This document shows positions 1 through 45,654 of a DNA stretch of 64,000 nt, piece after piece. The notes under the pieces were generated by a model, which ran no database searches, was not told where the DNA came from, and saw only the letters and a program-made list of their open reading frames with translations. A program made the position numbers and the translations under genes. Numbering within the stretch: position 1 is the stretch's first letter; each line of letters starts with the position of its first letter. Source of the DNA: Paecilomyces variotii (Eukaryota); assembly GCA_004022145.1 (NCBI GenBank), contig RCNU01000009.1; one strand, 5' to 3'.

Positions 1-751
1 ACGGAAAAGCAAGAAGGGTCCCTCGCAGATAAGGTGGTTGACCCGTCCACGCCACGGAAAGAGTCCCTTGCATGATGCATTCTTCATAGGCTTTTGAAAC
101 ATCAAGTGTTCGAAACAGCCCACAGAACGCTGCAAGAGACTCTCTTTCCGCGCGCTGGTGTCTGACACGATGCTGTTCTAGAAGCGTCGTGATTACATAT
201 CATTTGCCTGTACAGTCCTCGGCGCATAACTGATCGATGGAGCGCGAAAGTGATCGACTCTTTCGGATTGTGGAGGAGGCCCAGGACTCATGACATAAGC
301 AAGGGTCCTTGAAGGCGATCGACCTTGCACAAGGTTCGACAGTCGTCTCATATAGATACATACATATCTGGCTTTGGAGTCTTTGAGGCCGTGTTTCAGG
401 TCGGACTGCTCGTTGTCGAGATGCTCACGTGACGGGATGCGGCTGCCGGGAACCGGGACCCCCCTTTTCCATCCCCGAGGCTATTTAACTTAATTAACGC
501 CAGCGGTGGAGAAAAGCTCAACTCACAATGAACGAGTTAGTTCGGGATCCATACGGCACCCCTTAAGCGATCCAAAACAGATCTATCTAGCCGGCTAGAG
601 ACCCCGGTTTCAAATGGATTCGGAGACTAGATAGAATGACTGCCTGCTAGCTTCGCGAGCAGATCACTTTCTGTGGATCCTTATGGTATTGTCCCCCGGC
701 AACCACTGCTCTCGCGCGAGAGAAAAAACGCTGTTCGAAATCTCTGGATGC

Positions 752-783
752 AATAATAATAATAATAATAGTAGTAGTAGTAG
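752..783. repeat. Compound microsatellite (AAT)6 followed by (TAG)n
   Basis: aataataataataataata gtagtagtagtag read directly. Confidence 0.9.
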
Positions 784-3700
784 ATGGCTTATCCACAGAT
801 CGAAATTGAGTAGCTAGCGCAGAAGGGTCCGACTCCATTAATTTTGTTTTCCCTTCCGGACTAACACAATGCACAGCAGATCCCTTGAGAGTTCTGCTCA
901 TACGATTTCTCTGAGACAGACGCGCAATCTTAGATGGTTTGATGTGAGTTATGGGGCTGAGAAGGATAATAATGCCCTTCATAAGTTTTTCATCTGCGGT
1001 TGCTGCATCATGGTAGAATGGCGAATAAAAAGCTTTCTGCTTGACTATTATGTCTTGTGCCATGGGGCATAATAATAATCCCGTAGCGTGATTAACCCCA
1101 ACCCCAACGGTAGTGGAGGGCTGTTGCTCCTTTATCCACAGTACGTACTCCGTAGACGAGACGGTTTTAGCAGCGCGTTGATAGTTCCCCAGGGATTGCT
1201 ATTTTTGGCTTATTTAGATGATCGCACCGATCTCGCCTGAACGTAGCTGAATAGAACTACGGAGTAGAGCATTCTCATCAGTCTGCCAACCTGTGCGAAG
1301 ATCGTTACCACAGAGATATATTATTCCGGGGATAACGACGCAAACAACATCATCCTTAGCGATGTGGCTGCAGGAAGGCTGTGTCAAGACAAGATTTCAG
1401 CATCTGTGCGTGCAGGCAGAAGGATAGTTTGGTTTAGTCGCGGCTGTACGGAACTTTCCAAGAGCTACCAAGTAATCCCCTGGAAACATATGCATCAAGG
1501 TGGAGTCCACGTAGACCGGTAGCGAAGGGAACAGGACGAAATACGCCACGGGGATGTACGTCGCTTCTAGGGATCCTGCGTTTTAATCCCCGGAATAAAT
1601 GATGATAATAATGATGCGCTCTGCGATGGTCCACGACGCAGAAGTCAATAGTCACGGCGTTGCATTACTGAGAGAGGACATATGCTCCGTCCAACAAGGC
1701 GCAGCGACTATCTATCCAATTTTTTGGTCGTTGAATATCAACCAGGAGCAGCTAATAGTCGATGAACTGAAGGTATCCTTGCTCCGAAGAGCATCGCCAG
1801 TATCTAGTCGGCTCTCAGGTATATCACCGATGATGCTCGTTCACCCGGCTCCATAAATGACTCAGGGTCAGAAGGGTCCACGGCCAGCGGTCTCGACAGA
1901 TCTGGATACTTACGCTAGGGCACAGGTCAAACAGTCTGCCGGATGTTCACCAGTTGACCCGGTTCATGGTGATCTGCAGGGCATCGGCATAGCGTGGCTT
2001 GCACACGGAGCCGCTGGCGCAGGTACGTTGAAAACCTGCCAGGTTGAGGTTAGTCTCGCGGATCTAAAACGACTTGTGCCACTCATGAGTGGTTCAGGCT
2101 ATTTAGTTGCCCAGCATTCTAAAACGTGACGGGTGACGCCGTCGAATCTTAAAATCCATGCTGGGATGCAGGCTCTAGCCATGTCTAGGAAAGGCCGCCA
2201 TAGGGCTTCGGATGTGGACAGGATGAAAATTCACCGTGGCTGAGGTCTCAGCTGTCTCGTAGTTGCCTGGATTGTTCGTCCAGTTGAGGGTATTTCTTCG
2301 GACGGAGAAACAGTCACTAGGTAGACGGAAGTGCCACATGAACGCCTGTGTCCTTTTGTATCGATAATGAAGGGCTGCGATATGCGACACATGCGATCTC
2401 AACAGCGTCGCTTCAATAGAAGTCAATAATGATGGTCAGATAGTGTCGGACTTTTACCTGATCACGTACTCGTAATTGGGGCCGATTGAATGCTCAGCCG
2501 ATCCCGAATAGTAGTGGGACAACGAAGGATCAGGAGCCCCTTTGGAGTCGGACCCTTCCCCTGCTCGGATTCATTATTTAGTCTATCCGTGTATTTAATC
2601 TAAATATGTTAACCTGCATGCGACCCCTGTTCATCCGTAGAGTAAAATAGCTTGTGTGGGGAAAAAATTCCAGCCCAGTTTGAAGGCGCTCAGCTCGACC
2701 GTAAATAATAGAAATAATGATGATAATCTACCGTCGGAGGTCCGAACGATCGTCCCGCGATGAGCGAGATCCTCGAGGTGGGCGACGGAGTTATGAATAA
2801 TAATATGTTTCTGAATCTCTCCGCGGACGGCAGGTGAGGATACATTCGCGGATCGAAATATGAACATGTCGGGGACCAGAACTGATCACCGTAGTCTTAT
2901 ACTGATGATGAAGAGACGTGGCTGATTAGCGTCGTCCTGATCTGGCCTTCCAATAAAAATGGGTCAATTGATCTCAGCAGAGCCTCCGCGGACGATATAG
3001 CTACTCCACCGCGTTTTGTGACAGTCTCGTCCAGCATCGCTCATCATAGATATGCCTAGCCATGTTTTCTCAGGCCCGATTGACCACCAGGCTGTTTCGA
3101 GGAAGACTCCCCGATCTATGCTGTCGCTATACAATTGCACAATGAAACTAATCTGCGATCATCGATCTCCTGCCGCCATCCAGGCTAACGCTATGGGGCA
3201 GGGTATAGCCGATATGATACTTTATTTGGGCGTTCGTTCTTTCGACGGTTCTGCGCAAGTATAGCGGTCTCCTGGAGTCGGCTATGCGACGCCACGTCTG
3301 CACAATGCGCGCATTTCCGCCAGGGAAGTTTCCCCATTGAGAGAGAAGTAAACACGTCTCTTATACAACATGCACTGATTGATATTGTGCTGAGCTGGGA
3401 TCGTGTGATCAAGATCTCAAGGGTCATATAGTTGACTCTCCATGTGTCTTGTGTCTCACCACTGGGCGGTTAATACTGCGTTGCAGATCATATAGCACAT
3501 GGATAGTAATAGAGACGCCCAATCGCTAGTTAGTTACTGCGTGCCATGCAGTTGACATCAGCGGAGCGAGATGATGGCAATGGCAGAAAGCTTCATCGGA
3601 ATGCTCCACACTTCGAGCAAGCTATACACCACTAGGCCTTGTAAACCTGCACAGGGATCCCACCAGTCCTGGCCGTACGTAGTAGTAGTAGCAGACTTAC

Positions 3701-5588
3701 GGCCGAGTTACCTCCAACAAGCAGGAGGGAACGGTGGCCAGCGAGATGCCCTGGGTTGACAGCCGCAGAGTGATCAACGCTCCAAGATCTAGGACATGGC
3801 TCGAAGCAGCAGGAACGGATCGAGGGAAAACCGTAATGCAAGGCGACTCTCGTCATCGCGAAGCGTTTCAGAAAAGTACTGAATGACAGAGGGGCTTCCT
3901 TTTCGTATCGAACTCGCAGATAATCATCATTGTTGTTCCCTTCGAGACCCGTCTGTAGCAGAATGTAACTGCGAGATTAACCTTAAACGACACATAACGG
4001 CGCATCTCCATTTCTCCGCAATGTCGGCTAGATACTCGGGGAGATAGGCTAGGACGCAGTCAACATCTCCGTTTTCTGCAGCATGCCGGACGTTGGAACA
4101 CACGAGGCATGGGATGCCAGCAACCACGCAGCTGAACCAGCCAAGAGACCAAAATCGGACCTTGGCTCGCATATCCCGGGTGACGCCCACACGATCTGCC
4201 GCCGTTTGAGCGCATAGTTAGCTAGTTCAACCATGGAGACAGATGCCCTGTACTATGAGACTATGAGATTGAGAGTTCAACCGCCAGATGATCCCCTGGG
4301 CAGGGCTTGCCGAATGGTGGGTCGGACGGACCGGCTGCGCGTTCGCTCTTCTTTTTTTTTTTCTGATCCCCTAACTTAACTTAACTTAGCCTAACGACTA
4401 ACCTGCTGGACGACAGAGACAGAGACAAGCCAGCATGAATTTAGTTACCTCCTTTTTTTCCTGTATCGCGAGAAACACGAACCAGGATGGACTCTCTCGA
4501 CCAGGATGAATGCTGCGGGGCAAAAGCGCTCTCTGGCCCGCCTCGTCTCCCTAGGGTCAACTGCCAATCCACCGTGTGGAACGGCGCCCGCAAGCCTCAC
4601 GGAAACCGTTCCAGGAGGCACTTGAGACCCCAGAGAAAAGCGTTGTGCTTCCAACAATCCAACCGGAGCTTGTGCTGGCTTGGGGCTGGTCCCAGTGCCG
4701 CAGCAGCCTTGTTAGAGAACGTCGTGCACGGGCTTGTGGTATCGACCATCTCCAAACCAACTCCAGCACGGTGGATATCATCGTTCGCCAGAACAGGAAA
4801 GGAAAAGAGCCAAAGAAAGGAACCCTAAGTGCAAGGTCATTTAGGTTCATCGCCCAATTGTCTTTCCCTCCAACGGCTAGCCTGATTGGAATCCAGACGA
4901 GTCGATGAATTGCCTGCTTACAGACGATCTGTTTGGCGGCGGACAGACCCAGAGCTCCTCTCAGGACCCTTAACTGGTTCTGTGTCCCTCGTCCATTCAT
5001 CTTTCTTGACTCTGCAGAAGCTTCCTGGCAGTTATCCTTTTTCTGTTTCCTTCTTTTATCGCATCACTGTCGGTCAATCCCCTGGTTGCCAATCTCTCTT
5101 TTCATAAGTTGCGCGCCTTGCCGCTGCCCGTCATTCGACAATTACTACTTCCCTTCCAGCTCTACACTTCTCCGTGAGATTGTTGTTAGAGTCGTTGCTT
5201 GGCCAGTTTCCCTTTTATTCCCTTCCAGTAAGGTTCCGTAAACTATACTGGATCAGATTTACCATTGTTGTTGTTGTTGTCATTGAAAGACAAACGACCT
5301 GCTGTCAACACGGAACGCTTGGCAATATAGTTGTTGCTGGACCCAGTCAATCATACCAGCAGTCACATTGCCCCGTCTTCCTTCCACCTTTGCCACCGTC
5401 GACATTGAGCCACCGAGGAAGCTCCTGGAGATCAGTCCTCGAGTTATTCAATCGACTTTCCGCACCGAAACAGACTTTGCTGGCAAGTGGTAAGAACATT
5501 ACTTGGACCACTGTGTCTCCCAAGCCGAGCTATAGTTTCTAATAGTCCCCAGGTTGACGATACAAAGCTAGCTTTTTGTCTATCAATT

Positions 5589-6581
5589 ATGTCAAGGAGT
5601 CAGACCAGCATGGTGTCAATTTTGAACAACGACGATAACCCGTCGTTTGCAGTCCGGCCAACTCCTCGGTTGACCAAACAAAACTCTACACCATCGTGTA
5701 CATATCCCTCTACTCACCACCACCGGATATCGGTGCCTGACTACCGCTTCGGCCCTTATTGCGACTCTCTGGTGTCGCCAAGATATACCCAACCGCCTTT
5801 GGACCCGTTCTCGTCGCACTCAGCTCCACATCCGGTGTCAGCTGGACCAGTGGAATATTCCTACAATTCCACGGCAGCCAGCCGGGATTTGTATTCTGGT
5901 TACGGAAGAGACTTGTCCCTATATACGCATGCAACCTCTCCCAACAGGATCCTGCCTACAGTGACTTCCCCAAGCGAGCCTCTTTCACCACGGACGCCCC
6001 TGGGCGGCCCTACAGAACTGGCCGCGTCGAGAGTGAACCGAAAGAACAAGTACCCATGTCCCTACGCGGCATCTCATGGATGTTCGGCAACTTTCACAAC
6101 TTCGGGGCATGCTGCACGGCATGGAAAGAAGCATACGGGAGAGAAGAGTGTTCACTGTCCCATATGTAACAAAGCCTTTACACGAAAGGACAACATGAAG
6201 CAGCATCGGCGGACACATCGAACGTACTCGGAGGATATGACTTCGAGACTGGACAGAGACCGGGAGCGACGACTGTGGACCAAGAGCAGTGACCAACTGT
6301 ACAGTCACAACCGATCAGCGAGCCAATCACTCTCGGATGCAGACGAGTATTCCGGACCCAGTGGACTCAATTCACCCACTGAAGAGAAGCCCTATAGCGC
6401 TTTGGAACTGCGTCCCGGAAAGCCGTTACCACCATCCGCATATGATGATCTGTCTATGAGGTATAGCAAACCTGACTTTGGTCGGAGCCAACCGGCATCA
6501 CGATCGGGAAGCATCACTGGTAGCCTCGACGCTCTGGTGATAGCAGCCTCCAGAGGCAACTTGAATTCTTATCAGCAATGA
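5589..6581 (+). CDS. C2H2 zinc-finger transcription factor, Nrg1-like (two fingers), intronless
   Basis: First ATG at 5589 (MSRSQTSMVSILNND). Fingers YPCPYAASHGCSATFTTSGHAARHGKKH-TGEK-SVHCPICNKAFTRKDNMKQHRRTH. FTTSGH.ARH resembles the first finger of yeast Nrg1. Confidence 0.9.
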   Translation: MSRSQTSMVSILNNDDNPSFAVRPTPRLTKQNSTPSCTYPSTHHHRISVPDYRFGPYCDSLVSPRYTQPPLDPFSSHSAPHPVSAGPVEYSYNSTAASRDLYSGYGRDLSLYTHATSPNRILPTVTSPSEPLSPRTPLGGPTELAASRVNRKNKYPCPYAASHGCSATFTTSGHAARHGKKHTGEKSVHCPICNKAFTRKDNMKQHRRTHRTYSEDMTSRLDRDRERRLWTKSSDQLYSHNRSASQSLSDADEYSGPSGLNSPTEEKPYSALELRPGKPLPPSAYDDLSMRYSKPDFGRSQPASRSGSITGSLDALVIAASRGNLNSYQQ

Positions 6582-12552: not shown

Positions 12553-13674
12553 ATGACCACATCTAATCTACCCAAAACTATGAAAGCTCAAGTTCTCGAA
12601 GCATTCAAGTCACCTTATGTGCTTCGAGAAGTTCCTCTTCCCAAAATCTCTTCTCCACATGACATCCTGATCAAAGTCGATGCTGCTTCATACTGTCATA
12701 CAGATGCGGTCCTTGCAGCGGGTGACATGCCACCAAATCCCCGCTCATTTCCACATGTTGGTTCTCATGAGTTCGCAGGGACAGTGGTCGCAATACCGCC
12801 GAATGGGACGGTAGATTTCAAACCAGGCGACCGTGTTGGTGTTCCTGGCCGCGCACTACATGCATGTGGTGTATGTGATGAATGTCAGGATGAGAAACGT
12901 CCCGAGAACGATTTGGCTAGATACTCTGTATTTTGCCCCGCGTCAGAGGGTAATGGGGTCTCTGTCGATGGGGGTTTCAGGGAGTACGCGGTAGTGGATG
13001 CAAGGCAGATAGTGCCGATACCATCTGAACTGAGCGCAGCAGAGACAGCTCCTATGATGTGCGCAGGCGTCACTATCTATGCTGCTTTGAAGAGATGCGG
13101 GCTCGCGCGCGGACAGCGAGTGGGGATAATCGGATGCGGTGGCGGTCTTGGACATCTAGGACTGCAGTTTGGAGTCAAGATGGGCTTGGAAGTCTTCGGT
13201 ATCGACAATTCAGATACATCATTAAAACTGGCGCGTGGTTTGAATACCGGCGCGCGAATTGTGGATTCGAGAGTGGAAAACGCTGCAGAGATTGCTCGTC
13301 AGATCGGCCTCGCAGACAGCAAGAAATATCCAGGAGAGATGGGTCTCGACGCCGTGATCATCCTGGCGGAAAGTCAGAACGGTTTCGATTACGGGATGAA
13401 GTTGCTGAAGAATCATGGGAAATTGGTCCTGGTCTCGTTTCCTAAGGAAGGGTTCCATATTTCATCCCGAGATATTGTCTTCCGAGACATATCGATAGTA
13501 GGGAGTTTGGTAGGTGGTCGGAAGACGTTGAAGGAGATGTTGGAATTCTCAGCCAGACATAGCATCAGACCGATCATTAAGCGATATCCTCTGTCGAAAT
13601 TGAATGAGCTCGTTGGTGATTATAGTCGTGGAATTGGCGGGAAATTGATTGTGGATATGTCTCTGGAGGAGTGA
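12553..13674 (+). CDS. Zn-dependent medium-chain alcohol dehydrogenase, intronless
   Basis: YCHTD and GSHEFAG catalytic Zn motifs. ACGVCDEC...C structural Zn site. GCGGGLG Rossmann loop. Confidence 0.95.
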   Translation: MTTSNLPKTMKAQVLEAFKSPYVLREVPLPKISSPHDILIKVDAASYCHTDAVLAAGDMPPNPRSFPHVGSHEFAGTVVAIPPNGTVDFKPGDRVGVPGRALHACGVCDECQDEKRPENDLARYSVFCPASEGNGVSVDGGFREYAVVDARQIVPIPSELSAAETAPMMCAGVTIYAALKRCGLARGQRVGIIGCGGGLGHLGLQFGVKMGLEVFGIDNSDTSLKLARGLNTGARIVDSRVENAAEIARQIGLADSKKYPGEMGLDAVIILAESQNGFDYGMKLLKNHGKLVLVSFPKEGFHISSRDIVFRDISIVGSLVGGRKTLKEMLEFSARHSIRPIIKRYPLSKLNELVGDYSRGIGGKLIVDMSLEE

Positions 13675-14301
13675 GCGAGTTAAGCTATGTGATAGTATTA
13701 GATTATCTTCTATGATACTTGCAGTCAGTTCACTTTTCCTTGTCTTGGTAACCTACTTTTGGATAATTATTAGGAAGATTAAATATATTCCCTGCCTATT
13801 CCGTTTGCTTCATCCCAGTACTTAAGATATCACCTGTGAAGTTGCAGCATGCTTCCTTCATTGACTTGAAATATCATATTAATTCCAGTCGCGCAATGTG
13901 CTAGAAAAGGGAAGTCTCATGTAGAGCCAATCTCGAGGTAATAATTTCAGCTAGTTTGATGAGCTTGGTGCGTAGTGGGATATCAATTTCATTTCCACCA
14001 AGGTACTCGTAGATATTCCAGATGTATCTTCAAAGCCAAATACAAGCTCGGAATTGATATAAACGATGGTCTAGATAGAGCGTATGAAGCACTTTTCTGA
14101 GGCCTTGCCGTTGAGACTAGTCTAGAGTCTACCAACGGCGAATCCCAGTGTCTTCCACTTCACCTATACATTGGATGAAACAGATATCAATGGTAATCAT
14201 CGTGCATTTAGTCCAATCATAACTGCCTCATACATCTCTAATATGATTGTAAAATGTCCCGACCAGTCAGATACAGCCCTTCTCGACATCCAGTCACACA
14301 A

Positions 14302-14748
14302 TCAAGCAACCTTATTTCCAAGCACCCTCTTATACTCTCCCTTCTCCTCCATCTCGTTTAGAACTTTCTCGGCCACCTTCATCGCATCCACACCAGCTGG
14401 CGCTCCGCAGTACACAGTCGCATGCAGAATCGCTTCTCGAATCTCGACTTCTGTCAGCCCGTTATTGATAGCTCCGCGAATGTGTATGCCAAGCTCCGGA
14501 GAACGGTTCAACGCCATCAGCATGCCGATATTTAACAGACTTCTCTGTTTGCGATCAAGGCCCGGCCGCGTCCAGATGTTTCCCCAGCACCACTCTGTGA
14601 CCAGTTCTTGTCCGGGGCGAGAGAACTCTGTCGAGCCGTTGGCGAGGGCGCGGTCGACGTATTCGCTGCCGACGACGCTGCGGCGGACTTTGAGGCCCTC
14701 CTCGAAGAGTTGTTTATGTAGGTCGTCGTATTTAGGGTCTGTAGACAT
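14302..14748 (-). CDS. Carboxymuconolactone decarboxylase (CMD/PcaC-like) family protein, intronless
   Basis: [41 protein letters not shown] and VYCGAPAG. No AhpD CxxC motif. Confidence 0.9.
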
Positions 14749-15044
14749 TTTGTTTTTGCTCCGATTTGTTGTCCGTTATTATAACGTTATAGAATGATGA
14801 GCCGGTGAAGTGGTGGGTGGAATTTTTGGGAGGATGATGGGTCGAGGAGTAGTATGCTTTAGAAGAACAGTTTTAGAGATCTCTTCTCAGACGACCATCT
14901 CACACTGATGTAAGTTGACAGACACTCTATGTTAATGTTCTGCTATTGATTTAGAGTGCAGACAAATGTTTTCAAACGATATTTCCCCCGGGTATAGAGG
15001 CCGGATGTAATGATAGTTGATGTTTGATCTGGACGAATAGCTTC

Positions 15045-15083
15045 CCCCGCATTCTCACCCCGGACATCTCCCCGAATGCGGGG
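15045..15083. promoter_or_regulatory. Perfect 10-bp inverted repeat (ccccgcattc-N19-gaatgcgggg), each arm a CreA-type GCGGGG site, with a CGG-N8-CCG motif between the arms
   Basis: Arms at 15045-15054 and 15074-15083; cggacatctccccg at 15061-15074; about 300 bp upstream of the CMD start. Confidence 0.5.
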
Positions 15084-15170
15084 CATTTAGTACGATGAAT
15101 ACCATACGCGATTAACTCACTCGAACCTGGGCATCGATTCGAATATGTACAGCTTTTACTGAGTTAGACT

Positions 15171-16219
15171 CTATGGTTTCTCTTTCTCCTGCCAATTCTC
15201 GTTTCCACCCAAGTATCGAAAGACAACTCGAGAATCCAAGTCCCTGCATCTAGGATCTTGACTTGCACCCTCGTAGGTTTCTAACCCAGCATCGCCCAAG
15301 ACAAGTCGAGCACCAACTCTATGGGCCATGTCGACGGCCAAGGCGAAATCCTTGCGCATCAGTTGCACTTTAAATCCGTTTTTATAACCATTGCTTGACG
15401 GCGCATCCGGATACACCCCAGGCACCGGGTTAAATCTGTCGCAAATTGTATTCTGCGCAGTGCCTGCTGCATAAACCTTCGTCAGGACTTTTGGACTTAG
15501 GCCAGAACGCATCCCCATATCCATAGCTTCTGAGCATGCGATCGCGATAATGCCCGATAGATAGTTGTTAGAGAGTTTCGCTGCTAAACCAAGAGATGGT
15601 CCACCACAAGGTATCACTTCCTTTCCCATCATGCTGAGCAGGCGTGTGATGCGAAGAAGGTTTGGATCTTCATCAGAACAGCCTAAGAAGAATGCAATTG
15701 TGCCTTTCTGTGCGCCGATTACACCGCCGCTGACGGGAGCATCATAGAAGGAAGCGGATGGGAAGTTCTTATTGATGTAGTCTTTGACCAAGAGACTGGT
15801 CGCCGTGTCGATTGTAGAGCAGTCAATAAGCAATTTGTTGGATATGTCTGTGCTGCATATGCTGGTTTCTCCGTCTACGTAGACTGATTTGACGTGTGCG
15901 TCTTCCGGGACCATGGTCAAGATGATTTCCTATGAGCATGAGCAATCGAATGATTCTCTTTTCGGCGGCCATTGGAGTGCATGTAAATTCCATTGTGCAT
16001 ATATGTACATACCGACTTTTCTGCTACATCTTTAGCATTGACGCCTTTGAAGACTCGGTTCGGATACCGAGAGCAGATCTCATCCACGGCGCTTTCGACC
16101 ACGTCAAAAACATGTATCCGCGCTTCCTTGGGAAGCTTTTCAGCGAGTTGACCTACCATGGGAGTTCCCATGGCACCGAGACCGATGAACCCCACATTGT
16201 TGTACTCGGGGGATGTCAT
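15171..16219 (-). CDS. NAD-dependent beta-hydroxyacid dehydrogenase (3-hydroxyisobutyrate dehydrogenase family); exons 16219-16013 and 15929-15171
   Basis: GFIGLGAMG, DAPVSGG, catalytic K in AAKLSNN, FKVQLMRKDF. Intron gtatgt...catag at 16012-15930 restores the frame. Confidence 0.93.
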
Positions 16220-16675
16220 TTTGCTGTGGTATCGGCCGCAGAGGCAGGACAAGAGGAAGACCAAATCTGAATATGAATGCCAAGAATATAGTCAATATGT
16301 TACAGACAGAAATAATCTACAAGCAAGCCACCAGGTCTTTGCATGGGAATATTGGAAGATCCTGAGAGTTATAGTTTGTTTCGAAGTTCGAATGCGTAGG
16401 AACGGTATAACCGAGGAGGAAGACATGTCGGGGATTATCCGCCACTTCTCCTCATTGCTGACAGCAGTAAGAGTTCATGAGAAGAGGGTTAAGCGCGATA
16501 GTTGAGCAAATCATTGTCATGGAATTCAACTATCCGTCTTTCGTGCGGAGGCAGCGCAGTCCTGGTCGTTGGTAAAAAGCAGTAGTAGCTACGATCCTCC
16601 ATATCTATTTAACTTCCAGAAGGAACATACAACCACTTACTCTCAAGATAATTGAGATAGTATGTTATCAATACA

Positions 16676-17751
16676 ATGACTCAAAGAAATGATAAGACCT
16701 TACATACGATGGCCCCTTTCGTACTGGAAAGGCAGACAAAATCCGATTCTTCCAGCGAAGCTACTGTCGACGTCCATGTCCTCTTAGCTGGCCATCTTAC
16801 TTTACCAGAAAAGTATTTCGTCCATCCCGCATCAGATACAGCTAGACGAACTGTGCCCTCTTTATCGTTTCTCATCCAGCATCAACATCCAGTGTCGAAG
16901 AAGTTGACCCGTATTGTCTTTGACCTGGGACTGCGACGAAATACAGACCGTTATCCAGACCCGATTAGGCGACATATAGCAACGAGACAACCTCTTACTA
17001 CAGACCCTGATGTTGTTAAAAGTCTTGCAGCAGCTGGTGTAACGCCGAATGATATAGATTATGTTATTTATTCTCACGTACGTGGATATACTGTCCCTTT
17101 CTATAGTGATTTATACACTAGAACGCTGATTCCATATGACAGGTTCACTGGGATCATATCGGAGAACCTCGTGACTTTCCAAGAAGTATCTTCATCGTTG
17201 GTAATAAAACAATGAGTCTCCTCCATGGGAAGCCCGATACACTCCATGGCAGCCATTCTTTCTTCGAACGAGATCTTCTTCCCCAAGACAGGACGATTGA
17301 ACTAAGCGATCCCAACATTACTTCTACGCAAACTCCAAACCAGGATATCCCAATCGGCGAACCAGACTTTCGCCAACCATGGACAACTCACCCTGACCTA
17401 GGTTCTGTCATCGACTTATTCAAAGATGGAAGTCTCTATATCGTCGACGCCCCGGGCCATTTACCTGGGCATATCAACCTTCTGGCAAAAACAGCCCCTG
17501 GGAGATATGTATACCTAGCCGGCGATGCTTGCCATGATAGAAGGATCATGCGTAGGCAGAAGGATATTGGGGAATGGCACGACCTAGAAGGGCATCTGTG
17601 TTGTATGCATGCGGACAAGAAGGTAGCAGAGGAGACTATTGGTAGGATCCGGGAGTTAGAGCGGAAGGGTGTAGAGATCATTTTCGCTCATGATGTTGAG
17701 TGGGAGGAGGATAGGCGGAATAAGTCGCGCTTTCTGCGTCCGCGATTGTGA
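16676..17751 (+). CDS. Metallo-beta-lactamase-fold hydrolase (AHL-lactonase / fungal Mbl1-like); exons 16676 (or 16709)-17077 and 17143-17751
   Basis: Splicing of intron 17078-17142 creates SHVHWDH (HxHxDH). Also [16 protein letters not shown] and FAHD. Confidence 0.92.
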
Positions 17752-18090
17752 GGGGTTATAGCTGTGTTTATAGTCATGTTGATGCATTGAATAGTTTTGG
17801 TGGTCGACATATTGTATTCAATGTTATTCCGATCATAGCTGATGTTATTGTTGTTTCCAGGAATCCCCATGGGGCTAGCAGCACAACTTATCATCAGGAC
17901 ATCTTCATATATGGAGAGAGAATATATCTCACGTAATTAAATTTTCCATATTAGTTTATGGGTATCAATGGAAATGTTACATCGTAGATGACATATTCAG
18001 ACTTTCAGTCATCCTTCTTCCCAAAACATCGATTTATGGATCACAACAAGTCATCCAACTCCTGGCGCCAAGGTGAAAAACAACTCGTAT

Positions 18091-18760
18091 TTACGCTGCA
18101 ACCTCAGCTCTTTCCATCTCTGGGGCTTCCAGCTCTGCAGGATCTGCGCTGTGAGCAGCATCCACATTTGCAATTTTGAAAGGCATATATCCGGGCAAGT
18201 CTGACTTCAAGACACCGCATATAGCGATGATAGTCAGGATGAATAGAGCCAGGAAGGAAAGCCTGGTGGAATTCTCATGGTCAATTATATTGTCTCACGC
18301 AACAGCTCAAGTATCAAAGGTAGACTCACCAAAGTAGTATTGCGAATGCAATCATAGCATCCAAATAGGACGACCCGCTCGAGTATCCTCCCAGAAGCCA
18401 TTCAATATTTGCGAAAGACGCCAACCAGAAGACCCAAGTGACGAAGTACATCGCGACGAGGCCAATGGAAATCAACTTGTTTGTGGTAAGTGTATTCTCC
18501 TTTTGTCTGTAGAAAAAAGGCAGGAAGAAGGCGACTCCTGTGATTAACACGCTCCACGCGGAGGAGAAAATGATGAAATCGAGAATAGGAGGCGGCTTGA
18601 TGTCCACCACTTCGAAGGAGTAACCATTGTAATAATCATACTCTGGCACCGGAATGTGATGATACAGAGAGACAACATGTGCGCTCAAGCCTAGCTCTAT
18701 AATTGCAAACGCGAGAGATGCGCCTAGAAGCGCGTAGAGGGCGATATGGAGGGCGAGCAT
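18091..18760 (-). CDS. Four-transmembrane MARVEL-like membrane protein; exons 18760-18330 and 18262-18091
   Basis: Four hydrophobic segments (AIIELGL, FSSAWS, TWVFWLASFA, AFAILLWLSFL). Intron gtgagt...ccag at 18329-18263; stop taa at 18093-18091. Confidence 0.8.
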
Positions 18761-20118
18761 GAAGGGCAATAAAATATGGATAGCTACCTAAACTTTGCAA
18801 CCACACGAAAAGAGAGATAGATATCTCTGGCACAAAAGTGGGACTCGACTCTGGTTATATTTTCAGGCGGAGACCTGCCTCCTTGGATTTATACGAGAGC
18901 CAGCTCACAAGGCTGGTGGTCATTATCATGCACACTATGCGAACATGGCGCACAAGCTTCTGGTAAGGCAGACTCGACCGTCGATCGACTTGACTCCGGT
19001 ACTGCGTGCCCATGTGCTCGAGAAGCTATGTTATCTTCCAATCATGATGGGAAAAAACATCGACTGCTAGTCAAGACTATCTTCATCTTGCGAGACCGCT
19101 GCATCAGTATAACGGATCTAGCCATTGTAGGAATACTTCATTCTCGTATTCGCGAGGCTCCGCCACAGCCAAGAGTCTCCACAACACCAGATATCTCAAG
19201 AGTCGACAGACTCAAGCGATACAGAGGCTAGGCTGTCGCCGAGTTCTCGAGATATGGCAAGTCGAGGAGGTGTTGATATATCCACCCACATCCGCGCGAG
19301 GCGACTATTTATGCCAAGCTAGGCCAAATAATTGGGTGCGAATAGCCTCGAGACAAGTCATCTGGCTCTACCCCGCCATACAATGGACAAAAGCGTTTTT
19401 ATTTTTTATGTCTCTACATTCATTCTCAATCCTATTACAGAGGTATCTGCATACTACCGCTAGCTGGAGTGGGAAGTCCAGTTATTCTAGGTGACAGAGT
19501 CTGCGGCTTTACAAATACAACGCGAGAAAGGACTTGGTGATGTTCTGTTCTTCTCTGATTGGGTATGGGTTAAGAAGGAAGTCAGGTACCCGTTCTCTTG
19601 CATTTCTTCTGTTATATAGTTCAATATGATTGTTTACTTCTCTACCGTGTAGTCATGGACAGTCTTTCGTCTAGTTATCAATTGCAGTCATGTGCTGGGC
19701 AACGACTAGTTAATCACCGAGCTCAAAGATAAAAATATCTCATACCATCAATATTTGCCCTTTCATGTCACGGGAGAACCACCTGAATACTCTTTTCAAT
19801 TAACCCGCCGGCAAAATGTATCTATTTGCCCAGTCGGATAATTTCCCCGTGTGAGCACGAGACCCTTGCTAACCGTTATACTATATCCAAGTAGACAAAG
19901 CATCAGACACCTACTTATTTATGGAGTGAAATCTGATGATATTTGCTAAACAGCCTGAATGCAATCCATTCCTATCAATGGGTCTTCAGTATGCTGTATT
20001 AAAATGTTGCCATCACCGACTCGAAGCATGGTCGCTATGGTCCCTTTCTGTTTTCAATTGATTCGTATCCTGGCCATTTGAAAGTCTTCAGTATACTCTT
20101 TAACGTTTTACTTCTATA

Positions 20119-21117
20119 ATGTCGCCCACACAGACAGCTGCCCTGCCTCTAGACGGGAAATTTGGTATCGTCACCGGTGGAGCTCAAGGTATGCATGTAC
20201 TCCAAATCAGTATTCACCAGTTCAAGAAACATTGAGTACAAAATTGAAATCGGACGCTAAGTATACTGGCTCCTGATGCAGGAATCGGTGAGGCCATAGC
20301 GCGCAACCTCGCTGCGAAGGGTTGTTCCCTGCTCATCCCCTATGAATCTGAACCTTCACGGGAAAAGACGGAGAGACTGTGCAACTATCTCTCAAAAGAG
20401 CACTCGATTCGTTGTGTGAACGTCGAAGCAGATCTCCTGAAGACAGAAGATGCAGTGGAAAAGATTGTAGCGGCAGCCAAACGGAACTTTACCAGACCGG
20501 ATGGGAAGTTCCAAATTGATATCTTGATAAATAATGCTGGAGTATCCAAAGATCGATTTCTAAATGACCCTGCAAAAGGTCCCATGGATCGCGACTACTT
20601 CAACTGGCACTATGTGATCAATGTGCTAGCCCCTCTACTCCTGACACAAGCATGCGCGCCATACTTGCCCACGGACAAGTCAGGTCGCGTCGTCAGTACA
20701 TCCAGCGTCTCCTCGACCATTGGATTCAAGGGCCAAGCCGTCTACGGCGGTACGAAGGCAGCAGTGGAGGCGATGACGCGAACATGGGCGCGGGAACTGG
20801 CAGACCGAGCCACTGTTAATGCTATCAATCCAGGTCCCGTCTGCAGTGATATGTATTTCCAGGTGGGAGACGAGTTCTTCAAGCAAATGCAGGGATGGCA
20901 GGATCATACGCCTCTTTCCCGGGTGGTAGACTACGAGAAGGAACTGGCAGGTCTAACGGAGGAACAAGCCAAGATGGTCAAGGAGAAGATGGGCGGATGC
21001 AGACCGGGTTTCCCCAGTGAGGTTGCTGGGATCGTGGGAATGCTTTGTACACCCGATGCGGCCTGGTGTACTGGCAGTGTGGTGTGTGCGAACGGCGGAA
21101 TGAGGATGAGTTTTTGA
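20119..21117 (+). CDS. Classical short-chain dehydrogenase/reductase; exons 20119-20188 and 20282-21117
   Basis: TGGAQGIG across intron 20189-20281, plus NNAG, YGGTK (YxxxK) and VNAINPG. Confidence 0.93.
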
Positions 21118-21494
21118 AAATATTTGGCTTCTTCGTCTCTTCACCATTAGCGGAATATCAAAACAGCTCACTTGCATTTCTTGCGACCTTGAATTCAATG
21201 GTCCTTTTCCGTCTCGCGTATCTTCCAGGATTGACAATAAACACTACTTCCCGCTATGGGAATGGAAAGCACTCATATCATGTTGTCACTTCTTTCCCTC
21301 CATGAATTTACACACAGACTAATCTCCACTACCTGTAACATGATTGTTGACTGGAAAGTGCTTGTCTATACAACGTACACCATGAAAATCTAGTTGTGAA
21401 CTAGAATGTATTTTTTTTTTTAAAAAAATTCAAGGTACTCCAATACCTGATAACCGTCAGCTGTGCTATAATAGCCACTATTAGCTCTGCAGAA

Positions 21495-22534
21495 ATGAAT
21501 GAAACCACTTATTTCTTCACATTGTATGCATCTCACAATCTCTTCTTGTGGGATGAATGACCCCTAACCGATCAAAAGCGGAGACTCATATACATCCACT
21601 GGATTCAATCCGCATGGGACGTATCCTTCTGCTGAGAATCCTATGGGAAACCCATCCCTAGGTAAGTTCTCGTTTCTCCCTTCCGCGGCATCTCGAGAAC
21701 TAATTCACCAATAGGCGAAGGCACATCAGCGGGAGGCATCAACTGGGTGGGATATCTAACAGCAGTGCTCAACACGAGTCTCATGTTAAACTATAATCTC
21801 GCTATCAGCGGCGCATGCATTAACAATTCAGTCATCCGCGGCGTACCTGGAGACCTGGTATCGCAGGTCAAGTCGTTCGCAATTCATTATGCATCGCAGC
21901 CCGCCTGGGCTCCTTGGAGATCAGAAAATTCTGCATTTGCTATCTGGATCGGTATCAATGAGTACGTCAATATTTGTTTTGTTGTTCCGTCTCGATGTAA
22001 AGAGGTCGTCTGACTATTCTATCCTCCAAAGCATCGGAGACTCGTATATGGATGCAGATGTCGATTCCACGCTTCCAGTTCTGCTTGAGTGTTACTTTAA
22101 CCTTGTTAAAGATCTCTATGAGGCGAATGCGCGGCGATTTATATTTCTCAATATCCCACCGACGACTCGATCACCTCGGATCAAGGGAGAGAATCACACG
22201 GCCGTGCACGCAGAGTTTGTGCAACGATACAATCAGGCATTGAAGGATAAAATTCACGCGTTTAGCCAAAACCATCCAGATGTATGTCCGGAAGTATGTA
22301 CAAGGACATGGGCCAAGCCAGTACTAAGTATATTTATAGACCTCGGTGCTAGAACATGATACTTGGACTTTCATGACAGAAATGCTTGACAACGCCCCTT
22401 TCTACGGGTTCGAAGATGCGGAATGTCAGGGAACAGGATGTTTATGGTTCAACGACTACCATCCGACATCGAATGTTCATGAATTATTGGCTGCGGATTT
22501 GTTGTCGCGCATGAGAGTTGTCAACGGTACTTGA
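21495..22534 (+). CDS. SGNH/GDSL esterase, CE16-like; introns 21524-21578, 21662-21714, 21962-22031 and 22282-22339; true start may be 21406 (see findings)
   Basis: Spliced product contains FFTFGDSY, YNLAISGA, WIGINDIG and WFNDYHP (DxxH-type block). Confidence 0.87.
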
Positions 22535-24434: not shown

Positions 24435-26393
24435 TCATGCAAGACTATCGAAAGCTGCGGTCATAAATTGTTCCGCCATTGGGGATGTGAGAGTCGAGCC
24501 ACGTTCATCTTTATGGGTCGTTCTGAGGTGACGTTTCAGTTGATCTGAGGTGGATTAGCACATCGAAATATACCATGGCAACATGACTGAAATCATACCA
24601 GGACGAGTGAAGCTCTTCGTGCAACCCGGATATTGACATTTGTGTCGACGCTCTCCGTGAGCTAAAAACATGTTAGCACCATCCGCGCAACCAGTGAATA
24701 AGGAACATACTTAGTTTGTGGCTGGACATGTTTGAGGACTACAGGCGATTGTCAGCAATCACGTCTTCAAATCTCCTACAAGGCTAATGGCAAGACACAT
24801 ACATCGCCTGTCTGAAAATTACAGCCTGGGTAGTTGCATTTAAAAGGCTTCTCGCCAGAGTGAGTGCGTGAATGTGTTTCTGGCGTATTGTTAGTCCGGG
24901 GTCATCGCTGAACTTCATATTTGACATACTGAGCTCGCTGCTATCAGTAAATGCCTTCCCGCATTCTCGGCATTTATAAGGCTTCTCGCCCCGATGGCTC
25001 CGCTCATGGCGTTCTAGAGTTGCCTGCCTTGCAAACGGCTTGCTGCAGACCGAGCATTTGAAACTTTTAACTGTTAGACAAAGTAGGTTAGCCAGACGCA
25101 CGAGTGGAATGGGTGATTCGCGGCCATACAGTTACTATGAGTGAGAAAGTGGCCCTGCAATTTCGACTTCTGCGAAAAGGGTTCATCGGGTCGATGACAT
25201 CCCTCCCAGCAGCAATAGTAACCGTGACCTTTCCTGCCGTCCATCGTGCCCATATGCTTCGAGACCAAATGCTCTTGCAACGCACCAGCATCCGCGAAGC
25301 TGGCACCACACGCGATTTTCATCCCATCGTGATTGAAGGTCCATTTGCAAATATGGGGTTCGTGGTCATCAGTAGGAAAAGTAGGGCTTGTCAGCCCTGA
25401 TGATATGCCTCCTTCCAATGGCGGTGGTGTGTCGGCGGGACTGGACATCAAGTGAGAACTCACACTTGATCTGTGATGGCGCGCGTACGGCATATATGGG
25501 TGTGAATGGCAGTGGGTATGGCCATGAGCATGTGATCGACATACTCCATGAAAGCCATGTACACCAGTAGCTGCGGGAGTCCTCAGGCGATTTCCCACAT
25601 GCTGGTGAGCTGCGTTGGAACAGGGGGCAGCAACCGAAGGAGGAAGGCCAAAGAACCTCTCCATATTACTATCCGGGAGAAGAGGATGCACTCCATGGAT
25701 ATGGTGACCACAGCTGAGATAGCCGTGGCCGACTCCTAACACATCACATGTCCCCAAGCTTGCCAGATCGCTCTGACTCGAGTACGAGGGACTCGATAGA
25801 CCTACACTGGACTCTTTGGATGGAGCCTGGCAAGACACACTATGACAGGAATCATGGTGCTGCGCATTGTGGGCAGGGGTCGACAGAGAAGCGAAGAGTT
25901 CGTCAGTGGCACGGAAATCGACAGTATGGTGATGAAATGGATCTTCTGGCTTCTGTGCCTGGGAGCTCTCATTCCCGGGCGCTGACGTCGAGGGCAAGAA
26001 GCCTGGGGTATCCCAATTGAGCTGGATGTCCTCTCCGAGCAGGGCTTCTAAACTCTGGCCCTCGTGGGAGTCCTCAAAACAGTGTTTGTCGAAGCACACA
26101 GGGCCGGTGCTCTCGCAATTCTGGTCCTCACAATGGGACTCGGAGCAAACGGTGGAATTATCGCAGTCGACGAAGCCATCGCATACGGAACCACAGGCGA
26201 CGGAGCAATGGTCCACATCGCAGCAGGCCTCGTCAATTGTGCAAGCGTGAGAGTCATGCGTTTCGTCCGGTGGGCAGCACCACTGTGATTGAGAGTCATG
26301 GCCGCCTGACAGCATTGGATTTTTTCCAGCCATCTGAAATGCCTCCCAGTGACACTCCAGGCAGAAGTCGCTGTCGTTCAGCTCCAGCGACAT
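24435..26393 (-). CDS. Multi-finger C2H2 transcription factor (about 6 fingers, the first two a Trp-containing tandem pair as in Zap1/GLI) with Cys- and His-rich N-terminus; introns 25129-25071, 24929-24880, 24802-24739, 24710-24662 and 24598-24545
   Basis: Splicing gives CKW...H, CCWEGC...HFLTH, CSVC...[44 protein letters not shown]...HKLTH and CQYPGC...HLRTTH. First in-frame ATG is at 26393; the start is uncertain. Confidence 0.88.
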
Positions 26394-27978
26394 TTGAAAA
26401 TAATTGCTCCCCTCCTTGACGGGGGGTTGTATGCCCGTAGTTTCTCCTCCTGAACCAGGCCGCCGTTGTACTCGACCGTTGGTCCCCAGTGAAAAAGCAA
26501 AGGACTTCGGGGTCGTCTCTGCGTGTGCTCGTCGCCGTAACTCGTCTGAGGGACCGTAGGGATGCTCAGGCACAGATTTGGAGGTCGTCTGCAGCTTTGA
26601 GAACCTGCTCGAGAATTTCTCGTGTCAGCAGCTCTTCACCAACCATGTGCGCACAGTCCAATCTTCGACGACGCACCTGTTCAATTCCTCACTCGGTCTG
26701 ACGGCGATTTTTCGGTGGACCAAAGATATAAAGGCGGAGAAAAGGCCAGGCGTGCCAGAGGATGTTGACCGCGGTGCTTGAGCATGCGATAATGGAGAGG
26801 ACCCTTGGAGCTTGGAAGAGGGGGAGGGGAAGAAGAAGGCGATCGTAGAGACAAAAGCAGCACGCGAGACGAACTCGCAGCCAGAGGGAACCTCGTGAGG
26901 ACCCTGGGGGCTGCAGTCGCAGCGCTGCGGGCGCGGAGAGCAAGTGAGGACCTTGGTGGTTAGAATAAGTAGTAGTCAGTTAAGTTAGTAGTAGTACAGT
27001 AGTCAGTAGAACACGCACTTTCGATATTACTTCCCGTCAATTTGTCCGCCCGTCTCCGCGAATGATATCGCCCTGATAGTAATAATGCCCACGCTGCAGC
27101 ATCGTCCGGTCTCGACTCCAGCAGCAAGAGATCGAAGGAAGGAGGACTTCTAAAAGCATGCCTTATCCAGGTCTGTCCCTCGTCTGTCCCGCGGAAACGC
27201 ACACGGCGATCAGGAACAAGAAAGAGGTTCGAGGTGGACCCATTAGCCAGTAAGAGTAACTTACCTTCGATACAATCCAGCAGTAAGTATAAGTTTCCAT
27301 ATACATCCAAATAATCTGCCAAATCTTCTATGATCTGCTCTTTTATCTCCAGATGGAAGACCGTTTGATCTCCTCGAGAGGAATTGGAGGCATTGGTACC
27401 CCACCAGCAGACCATTCTATGTCCGCAACACTTGCCTTGCGCATCTGCCAGTCAACACATCAGTCAGCTTGGCCATAACACAAAATGTCACATCTGACTC
27501 CAGCAAACCGAGGAAGTCTATGTATGTAGTATTAGACCATACAGCAAACATCCAGTCGTAAGGAATAATAAGTATGCGGGGTGCAGGAACACGCCACGTG
27601 CTGCACCGCCTTAATCTTCTACTCCAAAGCCACCGGATCGTCGTCATCTTATCCTATATCAATAATACTTCTCGTCTAATAACGATCCCTATTAATATAC
27701 CTCAGTGGATAACAATCAGACCTACTTACTATACACTCAGCGCCAGTCTCAATTTTTGCCCTCAGGTTTTAAAAGAACCAGCAAACCCGCCAGTTCCAGT
27801 TGCGATCGCATCCGCCAGTCGGGCTTGGCGGATACCTCGAAGAGAAACAACCCTTTAAATCGCGCTCGACTGCGCTGCTCTCTTCTTGCAGCCAGCTACT
27901 TAGAAGATCCAGTCAATAATCCCCCCTCATCTTCACCACCTTCACCTTAACTCTTATCTCTCCCACTCTCCACACACA

Positions 27979-44800: not shown

Positions 44801-45654
44801 AACCTGAAGATACAGAGGCGCGGAGAGCCGAACGCAGAGCAAAACGCTCTTCACGGCACGCTGCTGAACTCAGAGAAGCTGAAGAGCGCCGGATTAGGAG
44901 GCGAGAGGAAAAAGAGGCCCGTGAGAAGCGTGCCCGCGAGGAAGAGGAAAGGGAAGAAGAAAGGAGACGTGAAGAAAAAAGAGCCCGTAGAGCTGCTCGG
45001 GAGGAACGCCGGGCCCGGGAGGAGCAGGAAGCTAGAGAAACAGAAGCCCGCGCTGAAGCCAGAGCGACAGAACGACGCGAACGACGACGCACAAGAGAGG
45101 TAGAAGAAATGAACGGGGGCTCCAGACACCGGTCCAAATCTGGTCGACGACGCTCTCACGCGCCGGAGGAGGACTATGCTGGTGAACGACACCATCAACC
45201 TGGCCGATCGAGACGTCGAAGACCAACTGCACCAGACCCGGCAGAGTTCCACCCTGTTATGTCTGGCGGTAAAGATAAAACGTCGTCTTGGGTCCATTCG
45301 CAAGCCACAGATCCTCCCGAGCCACCTCCACTTGTAGCCACTGTGATTGATGTACCGACAGGCCCTGATGCTCAAAACGGCCACTCTCTGTCTTCGGATG
45401 AGGAGGCTCGTCGGGAAATGCGTCGTTTGGCTCGTCGACGCGCCAAATATCCGGGACTCACCGATGATGAGATTGCAGAACGACGTGCTCGACGTCGAGA
45501 AGCACGCAGGGGCGACCGCGACGGTATCAAGAGCAGCTCAGGAAGCGGCGACTACGAACGCGAGCGTTGGAGCAGAGCATACGACAGCCGGCATGCACCT
45601 CCCGCCAGTGGAACGAAAAGAACAAGCTGGCTGAAGCGACTCACTACGCTGTGA
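38838..45654 (+). CDS. Very large (~2,200 aa) low-complexity Lys/Glu/Pro-rich protein with recurrent Trp-Gly/KKDKKK motifs; probable introns 38880-38994, 39721-39774, 44150-44203 and 44320-44403; start tentative
   Basis: The 1876-aa ORF is joined to ORF 39046-39774 by intron gtaaga...ctgaa...atag. That ORF has no Met, so a 5' exon is needed; the phase-0 exon [14 protein letters not shown] fits. Confidence 0.82.
40880..42385 (+). repeat. Seven coding tandem modules (W/Q)[16 protein letters not shown](K/R)REKQLK(A/E)KGL..PGKDI, separated by variable (PE)n linkers
   Basis: Module starts at 40945, 41155, 41362, 41581, 41839, 42064 and 42265. Confidence 0.97.
43402..43458 (+). repeat. 12-bp coding minisatellite (gctccagaacct)x4 plus a partial copy, encoding APEP
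   Basis: Read directly. Confidence 0.95.

Follow-up and report, generated by a model that had tools for sequence, protein, structure and literature searches.

Does a run of common small-molecule enzyme genes in a fungal genome constitute a pathway, or do these genes simply lie side by side? This question is raised by a 64,000-nucleotide stretch of Paecilomyces variotii DNA (contig RCNU01000009.1 of assembly GCA_004022145.1, hereafter the window), in which a preliminary description had proposed an undescribed catabolic cluster of seven genes. These genes encode a Zn-dependent alcohol dehydrogenase (ADH), a carboxymuconolactone decarboxylase family protein (CMD1), a beta-hydroxyacid dehydrogenase of the 3-hydroxyisobutyrate dehydrogenase (HIBADH) type, a predicted lactonase of the metallo-beta-lactamase fold (MBL), a four-transmembrane (4-TM) protein with a MARVEL domain, a classical short-chain dehydrogenase/reductase (SDR) and a putative SGNH/GDSL esterase. 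It is strongly supported that ADH, CMD1, HIBADH and MBL form a functionally linked cluster of catabolic type, because their relatives co-locate in dozens of fungal contigs and in named genomes while the surroundings differ. The SDR, the 4-TM protein and the esterase, by contrast, find no support as members of it. We give a probability of about 0.5 to the reading that the four-gene unit is a trimmed copy of a conserved cluster serving the catabolism or detoxification of a small lactone, perhaps a carboxyl-bearing one. Fungal catabolic clusters are far less mapped than biosynthetic ones.

The evidence for linkage comes from 79 metagenome loci, each chosen for an MBL homologue and taken with flanking sequence of up to 10 kb, which were compared by tblastn with the window products taken as separate exon pieces. 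Merging loci at 97% or higher identity of the MBL exon-2 product left 53 groups, 47 of which are at least 50% identical to the window MBL and were used as non-redundant orthologue-level groups. HIBADH was assessed where 1.3 kb or more of sequence lies upstream of MBL (32 groups), and CMD1 where 3.2 kb or more does (18 groups). A divergent HIBADH gene (61-84% identity) lies directly upstream of MBL in 28 of the 32 groups; it is missing beside MBL in loci L002, L031, L042 and L066. CMD1, mostly at about 80% identity, is found within 5 kb upstream of MBL in 13 of the 18 groups, and counting both sides raises this to 16. ADH (56-69% identity) is present in 10 of the 47 groups; of the 15 that offer at least 8 kb on one side, 6 contain it. 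The preliminary description had named unlinked orthologues as the outcome that would speak against a cluster; the opposite is seen, since the relatives stay linked in many fungi.

The remaining three genes of the block behave differently. No relative of the MARVEL protein or of the esterase occurs in the 79 loci, and the SDR has a single weak match there (34% identity, 7 kb off). The proposal that all seven genes make up one Paecilomyces-specific pathway could appeal to their position within 10 kb and to the fact that an SDR and an esterase could act on small molecules, yet the sampled loci include L039 and L040, whose CMD is identical to a Thermoascus protein and whose downstream flanks reach 10 kb and 5.7 kb; we regard this proposal as very improbable. 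The cluster claim of the preliminary description is thus retained for four genes and abandoned for three. The same comparison bears on chance. Fungal genomes hold many ADH, SDR and MBL paralogues, and common enzyme families could in principle be juxtaposed with no joint function. Linkage, divergent orientation and a promoter element are nevertheless seen repeatedly in different fungal classes, amid differing flanks, which makes such an accident the least credible of the explanations considered here. Indeed, the linkage goes beyond background synteny: 12 other open reading frames (ORFs) flanking the block in the window have no match among the 79 loci, and a heterogeneous set of genes borders the cluster in the 17 long loci (HET, RNase HII, CENP-C, glycoside hydrolases and kinases and, now and then, major facilitator superfamily (MFS) transporters). 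Annotation of 87 flank ORFs in these 17 loci revealed no additional recurrent member. Members of the cluster also remain together in both of the two gene orders found among the loci.

Named genomes give the same picture through consecutive locus tags, as in Thermoascus crustaceus (4373/4374 for CMD/HIBADH) and Scytalidium lignicola (g11212/g11211 for MBL/HIBADH), and likewise in Pyrenophora teres (005895/005894), Kalmusia (004154/004153) and Neocucurbitaria (013980/013970). The cluster is spread over Eurotiomycetes, Dothideomycetes, Leotiomycetes and Sordariomycetes. Prokaryotic relatives were absent from one bacterial and archaeal scan, and a second scan returned only two short archaeal fragments of 28% and 42% identity, which leaves no bacterial operon to serve as a model. 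Two single occurrences in the neighbourhood of cluster genes may be recorded here: a cupin-domain ORF abuts HIBADH in L034 (7862-8635, minus strand), in one lineage and not recurrently, and an MFS transporter abuts CMD1 in L008 (6006-7583, minus strand), with MFS pieces also in L029 and L043, again not recurrently.

In many related loci the cluster is larger than in the window. A gene for a two-domain CMD/AhpD-like protein (CMD2), in which both halves match the Pfam CMD family, lies downstream of MBL, in the same orientation, in 22 of the 31 groups that could be assessed, and a regulator combining C2H2 zinc fingers with a Fungal_trans domain (PF04082) is present in 13 of 47. In six groups, a second MBL (36-43% identity) lies divergent to ADH, and in four of these six it is followed by a further HIBADH (35-38% identity); the L027/L029 group has its sole distant HIBADH copy elsewhere in the locus, and L041 has none in its flank. 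The promoters share a sequence element as well. The core GGGGTA/TACCCC, extended to TTGGGGTAAG, occurs in 27 of 30 homologous HIBADH-MBL promoters, when over 30 shuffles any hexamer appeared in at most 17 sequences. The density of GGGGTA is 3.29 per kb in these 30 promoters versus 0.57 per kb over the 652 kb of loci, and the hexamer is also found in four of the six promoters between ADH and the second MBL. The element, in its TTGGGGTAAG/GCGGGGTAGA forms, lies mid-promoter in the HIBADH-MBL regions of loci L001 to L066 (for example L040:3020-3588 and L045:9619-10000). As a sequence typical of C2H2-finger sites, it may be the target of the C2H2/Fungal_trans regulator of the cluster. Compact, widely conserved, equipped in its fuller form with its own regulator and promoter element and with no described function found, the cluster is a ready target for pathway discovery.

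The window copy has none of these additions. Remnants of CMD2 or of the regulator were not detected in the window even at E=50, GGGGTA is absent from every intergenic region of the window cluster, and the window HIBADH-MBL promoter contains no match to YGGGGTAR even when one mismatch is allowed. Two C2H2 zinc-finger ORFs do flank the block at a distance (5409-6578, plus strand; 24787-26624, minus strand); both are unlike the regulator that accompanies the cluster in related loci.

The relationship between the window unit and the fuller cluster can be followed within Paecilomyces itself. This genus has two types of CMD1, and one P. lecythidis strain has both, under tags 005690 (95% identical to the window protein) and 009142 (83%). 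P. variotii No. 5 also differs from the window, with identities of 68% for MBL (exon 2), 80% for HIBADH and 84% for CMD; the contig given for each of the three proteins is 53,741 bp long, and the equal size suggests that they share one contig. The CMD of L039/L040, which a Thermoascus aurantiacus protein matches without a difference, is closer to the second Paecilomyces type (90% identity) than to the window type (85%). In an MBL tree rooted with the second-MBL paralogues, the window and No. 5 proteins group with support of 100/98, and the path between them is long (0.62 changes per site). The window types fall within the Eurotiomycete clade in the CMD1 and HIBADH trees, whose resolution is too poor to date the duplication. 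The window unit is a second copy, diverged and trimmed, of a cluster that is conserved across the Pezizomycotina, and Paecilomyces has a canonical-type copy too. We read its origin as an old block duplication within the lineage followed by trimming, with no obvious foreign acquisition. Having been narrowed from seven genes to four and recognised as a trimmed paralogue, the candidate calls for a different experimental design.

What the cluster does must be approached through its enzymes, and MBL is the most informative of them. The segments SHVHWDH, PGHLPGH, GDACH and FAHD of the window protein align with the metal ligands of AiiA, and all seven ligands of the AiiA-type site (HxHxDH~H~D~H) are invariant in 15 members of the MBL family. 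A profile of this family matches acyl-homoserine lactone (AHL) lactonases (E 4e-12) and 4-pyridoxolactonase (E 2.6e-9) in the PDB. The AlphaFold2 model of MBL (pLDDT 80.2, pTM 0.85), submitted to Foldseek, retrieved AiiA first (2a7m, E 2.4e-14), followed by AhlX, 4-pyridoxolactonase, GcL, AaL, AiiB and AidC, so that only MBL-fold lactonases and their derivatives stand at the top. The lactonase metal site of MBL is therefore intact, and its modelled fold is that of a lactonase. The quorum-quenching lactonases AiiA, AhlX, GcL and AaL, together with 4-pyridoxolactonase, share fold and metal site with the window MBL, which is only 14-21% identical to them in structural alignments. The Tyr of the DASY segment of AiiA has a catalytic role; the His at the aligned position is invariant in the MBL family and is followed by a conserved DRR, a combination that hints at an anionic substrate. 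MBL-fold lactonases are of applied interest in quorum quenching and in the detoxification of mycotoxin lactones. The fungal lactonase AsPLa is grouped with these enzymes; it was picked as a homologue of AaL, from another lactonase clade (PMC13413597), and was set aside as a counterpart of the window MBL. One annotation in this family deserves mention, that of Alternaria panax protein P0049 (PF00753, 323 aa), to which NCBI and UniRef give the name "3-hydroxyisobutyrate dehydrogenase", probably taken over from the adjoining gene.

CMD1 falls close to PcaC. It scores 140.1 bits against the PcaC equivalog TIGR02425, a near miss of the 155.7-bit cut-off that covers positions 2-122 of 123, and it matches PDB entries 4g9q (E 1.2e-24) and 2af7 (E 1.1e-13). 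PcaC is its best curated match, and it matched no AhpD model. By direct reading, neither CMD1 nor the CMD2 pieces contain a CxxC motif. This bears on the idea of a module for redox stress or the detoxification of reactive carbonyls, in which the CMDs would be AhpD-like enzymes of peroxidase type, MBL a thioesterase resembling glyoxalase II, and the two dehydrogenases reductases. MBL folds do include glyoxalase II, the CMD family includes AhpD, and the CMD gene of Aspergillus niger responds to a redox-active phenol (PMC10406623). A peroxidase or stress role is nonetheless unlikely, and we hold it quite improbable, because CxxC is absent and MBL is nearest to lactonases in both sequence and fold, not to glyoxalase II.

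Of the two dehydrogenases of the unit, the HIBADH-type enzyme has human HIBADH as its best PDB match (E 1e-36), and its exon 2 alone (252 of 321 aa) reaches 190.9 bits against TIGR01692, for which the cut-off is 291.6. Judged by sequence, it is nearest to true 3-hydroxyisobutyrate dehydrogenases. ADH is best matched in the PDB by a bacterial/yeast ADH (1rjw, E 2.3e-58) and obtains 174.5 bits against the NCBIfam model AdhP (cut-off 344). An Asp at the end of the second Rossmann strand is a textbook sign of a preference for NAD over NADP, and direct reading places an Asp there in both enzymes (...HVFD... and ...FGID...), which suggests that both are NAD-dependent and hence would work in the oxidative, catabolic direction.

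From these families, from the metal site and from the conserved linkage, we infer a substrate, an order of steps and a cofactor use. MBL would hydrolyse the ring of a lactone, the HIBADH-type enzyme would oxidise the beta-hydroxy acid so released, giving a beta-oxo or formyl acid, CMD1 would remove CO2, and the ADH1/AdhP-like enzyme would interconvert the resulting small aldehyde and alcohol. This is the reaction order put forward in the preliminary description; it is chemically sensible, fits the enzyme families and offers the most economical scheme. A bolder and tentative extension, which we consider possible at best, takes the canonical unit of up to eight genes as an undescribed fungal pathway for the oxidative decarboxylation of carboxy-substituted or sugar-acid lactones. 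Two MBLs, two HIBADH-type enzymes, a PcaC-like CMD, a two-domain AhpD-like CMD and an ADH would be governed by the C2H2/Fungal_trans regulator through the TTGGGGTAAG-like element, and a lactone would be converted to a beta-hydroxy acid and then a beta-oxo acid, whose loss of CO2 would leave a small carbonyl compound. The window copy would then be a rewired duplicate that has escaped from the regulator. If true, this extension would provide a role for orphan fungal PcaC-like genes, which are strongly induced by protocatechuate and yet dispensable for the known pathway.

The order of the first steps could also be reversed. CMD1, close to the PcaC equivalog level, is encoded beside a lactone hydrolase, which recalls the bacterial pcaC/pcaD step of the beta-ketoadipate pathway, and the cluster could be a side branch of aromatic catabolism in which CMD1 first decarboxylates a carboxy-butenolide (a ring-fission product resembling 4-carboxymuconolactone) to an enol-lactone. 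MBL would then stand in for PcaD, and HIBADH and ADH would reduce the oxo-acid. The full-length, near-threshold PcaC match of CMD1 agrees with this order, and further points in its favour come from the A. niger study (PMC10406623). The authors call NRRL3_08340 orthologous to 4-carboxymuconolactone decarboxylase from bacteria; protocatechuate induces it 240-fold in Table 1 or 1770-fold in the bioreactor data of the supplement. An AhpD-like protein of undescribed role, NRRL3_00837, was essential in the same study, which gives GenBank accessions OR137155 for NRRL3_08340 and OR137154 for NRRL3_00837. The transfer-culture value for NRRL3_08340 differs between places in that source, being 240.9 (15.2 to 3661 transcripts per million, TPM) in main-text Table 1 and 7.9 (400 to 3162 TPM) in supplementary file 2. 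Against the reversed order stand several facts of the same report: fungi form 3-carboxymuconolactone, not the 4-isomer, and use ChdA on it; deletion of NRRL3_08340 caused no growth defect, the gene being dispensable despite its induction; and its neighbours, encoding a transcription factor, a saposin-domain protein and a nonribosomal peptide synthetase (NRPS), are unrelated and all uninduced, so that no cluster exists there. CMD1, moreover, is at most a putative orthologue of the A. niger gene, HIBADH is left without an obvious role, and MBL differs in fold from PcaD, an alpha/beta-hydrolase. The domain scan of the window covered ORFs of at least 110 aa in 0-34 kb, a subset of its 52 listed ORFs, and neither these nor the flanks of the 17 long loci contain a dioxygenase, a cycloisomerase, or pcaB, pcaD, pcaHG or their fungal equivalents. 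We therefore judge the decarboxylation-first order unlikely, though it deserves to be kept in mind. The cluster gives a genomic context to a published puzzle, namely why fungi keep a highly conserved gene, very near to the bacterial 4-carboxymuconolactone decarboxylase, that their protocatechuate pathway can do without.

A number of observations weigh against the preferred reading of a trimmed cluster for lactone catabolism or detoxification. Most of the assessable loci have no linked ADH, and the metagenome groups are not phylogenetically independent of one another. CMD1 is far wider spread than MBL, with 2705 homologues, some in genera absent among the 120 MBL matches listed, and it does not need the cluster, since in A. 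niger the CMD gene lies among unrelated genes that are not induced. The substrate of MBL is not transferable from known enzymes, because its scores lie far under every curated lactonase cut-off (AttM, 62.2 against 390 bits; 4-pyridoxolactonase, 49.7 against 325; AiiA, 40.8 against 375; AidB, 28 against 360). Finally, the window copy, with no regulator, CMD2 or promoter element, may have changed in regulation or function.

Bacterial lactone assimilation offers another precedent for the cluster. The blcABC (attKLM) unit of Agrobacterium, an operon for the assimilation of gamma-butyrolactone, combines an AttM-type lactonase, a hydroxybutyrate dehydrogenase and a succinic-semialdehyde dehydrogenase (SSADH), and it resembles the fungal cluster in placing an MBL lactonase beside hydroxy-acid dehydrogenases in a small unit with its own regulator, the regulator being that of the window's relatives. 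A corresponding route for unsubstituted gamma-butyrolactone, or for a lactone akin to it, would have MBL produce 4-hydroxybutyrate and the HIBADH-type enzyme convert it to succinic semialdehyde, with a housekeeping SSADH finishing the pathway and the CMDs serving as accessories that decarboxylate nothing. MBL does lie within the AiiA/AttM lactonase clade, and succinic-semialdehyde reductases are members of the HIBADH family. In addition, the locus L049 joins an MBL relative with an SSADH-like aldehyde dehydrogenase (ALDH) and an ADH. But the conservation of CMD1 and CMD2 beside the MBL-HIBADH pair would go unexplained, the window dehydrogenase is closest to true 3-hydroxyisobutyrate dehydrogenases, no SSADH occurs in the scanned window ORFs or the canonical loci, and L049 is a single distant lineage; we consider the route distinctly unlikely. 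As a member of a blcABC/attKLM-type operon the window unit was rejected: no ALDH or SSADH is found among the scanned ORFs, the dehydrogenase belongs to another family, two CMD-family proteins have no blc counterpart, the regulator of the relatives is of the fungal C2H2/Fungal_trans type, and MBL remains far under the AttM cut-off (62 versus 390).

L049 merits a description of its own. This eukaryotic locus (1-20945; also L050 and L052) is distant from the others and low in GC (0.43). Its genes encode an MBL (43% identity), a divergent CMD of 180 aa, a sugar-type transporter, the SSADH-like ALDH, another CMD and an ADH (49% identity). This mix of genes was counted in favour of the lactone-catabolism reading, with the weight of one distant lineage.

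Among described fungal systems, the benzoxazolinone clusters FDB1 and FDB2 of Fusarium verticillioides are similar in kind, being xenobiotic-degradation clusters built around an MBL-fold hydrolase and provided with a cluster transcription factor. FDB2 includes an N-acetyltransferase. In FDB1, MBL1 is accompanied by amidases (AMD1) and a dienelactone hydrolase (DLH1), and the words "decarboxylase" and "dehydrogenase" are absent from the main text of the FDB1 paper. Since amidase, dienelactone hydrolase and N-acetyltransferase are not among the scanned window genes, FDB1/FDB2 were rejected as the same pathway, as were, from the available parts of their reports, the lactam- and lactone-induced Fusarium clusters. 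The preliminary description had recognised no characterised fungal pathway in this gene combination, and the literature agrees. Searches of full-text publications (subscription-only papers lying outside) for the gene combination, the locus tags of the named orthologues, Paecilomyces lactonases and the gene names from A. niger turned up no account of what appears to be a fungal catabolic cluster around an MBL hydrolase.

The gene models on which these comparisons rest are collected in Table 1; the region is fungal, with short introns and GT...AG splice sites. All seven genes of the preliminary description were recovered at their coordinates through Pfam matches, splice reading and, for the esterase, motifs, and the divergent lactonase-dehydrogenase promoter proved exact.

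Table 1. Genes and promoter of the block in the window (positions from the first nucleotide of the window).
Feature	Position	Strand	Details
Zn-dependent ADH, ADH1/AdhP-like	12553..13674	+	373 aa, one exon; Pfam ADH_N 6.3e-21, ADH_zinc_N 1.5e-15
CMD1, PcaC-like CMD family	14302..14748	-	148 aa, one exon; PF02627 1.9e-20
HIBADH-type beta-hydroxyacid dehydrogenase	15171..16219	-	321 aa; Pfam NAD_binding_2 and NAD_binding_11
HIBADH exons	16219-16013, 15929-15171	-	intron 16012-15930; splice sites read directly
Divergent HIBADH-MBL promoter	16220..16675		456 bp between start codons
MBL-fold AiiA-like lactonase (predicted)	16676..17751	+	exons 16676-17077, 17143-17751
4-TM MARVEL-domain protein	18326..18787	-	Pfam MARVEL 2.2e-09; adjacent to the conserved cluster, outside it
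Classical SDR	20119..21117	+	exons 20119-20188, 20282-21117; adh_short 9.3e-32; outside the conserved cluster
Putative SGNH/GDSL esterase	about 21495..22534	+	five exons, by-eye model; outside the conserved cluster

The split exons of MBL gave no Pfam match. Exon 2 is 100% identical to the 325-aa P. variotii protein P0001, which has PF00753; this sequence matches exon 1 from its second Met on, and the splice model (YSH/VHWDH) is confirmed because the protein reads ...YSH straight into VHWDH. The NCBI model of 325 aa begins at this second Met (16709), and with that start the gap between the two start codons becomes 489 bp. HIBADH exon 2 shows 97% identity with a P. variotii protein of 321 aa. 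In the SDR, the TGxxxGIG motif spans the splice junction. The esterase is called from motifs alone, namely GDSYT, GIND (across a splice) and DYHPT, all read directly, as its exon pieces gave no Pfam match. As the preliminary description had maintained, no polyketide synthase, NRPS or terpene domain was found among the scanned ORFs. Elsewhere in the window and unrelated to the cluster, positions 39775-45654 (plus strand) form a single open frame of 1,959 aa with a strong AT skew of 0.33-0.37, which is rich in tandem repeats coding for Glu and Pro, built from GAGCCA-type hexamers and including a unit of about 210-219 bp in about four copies.

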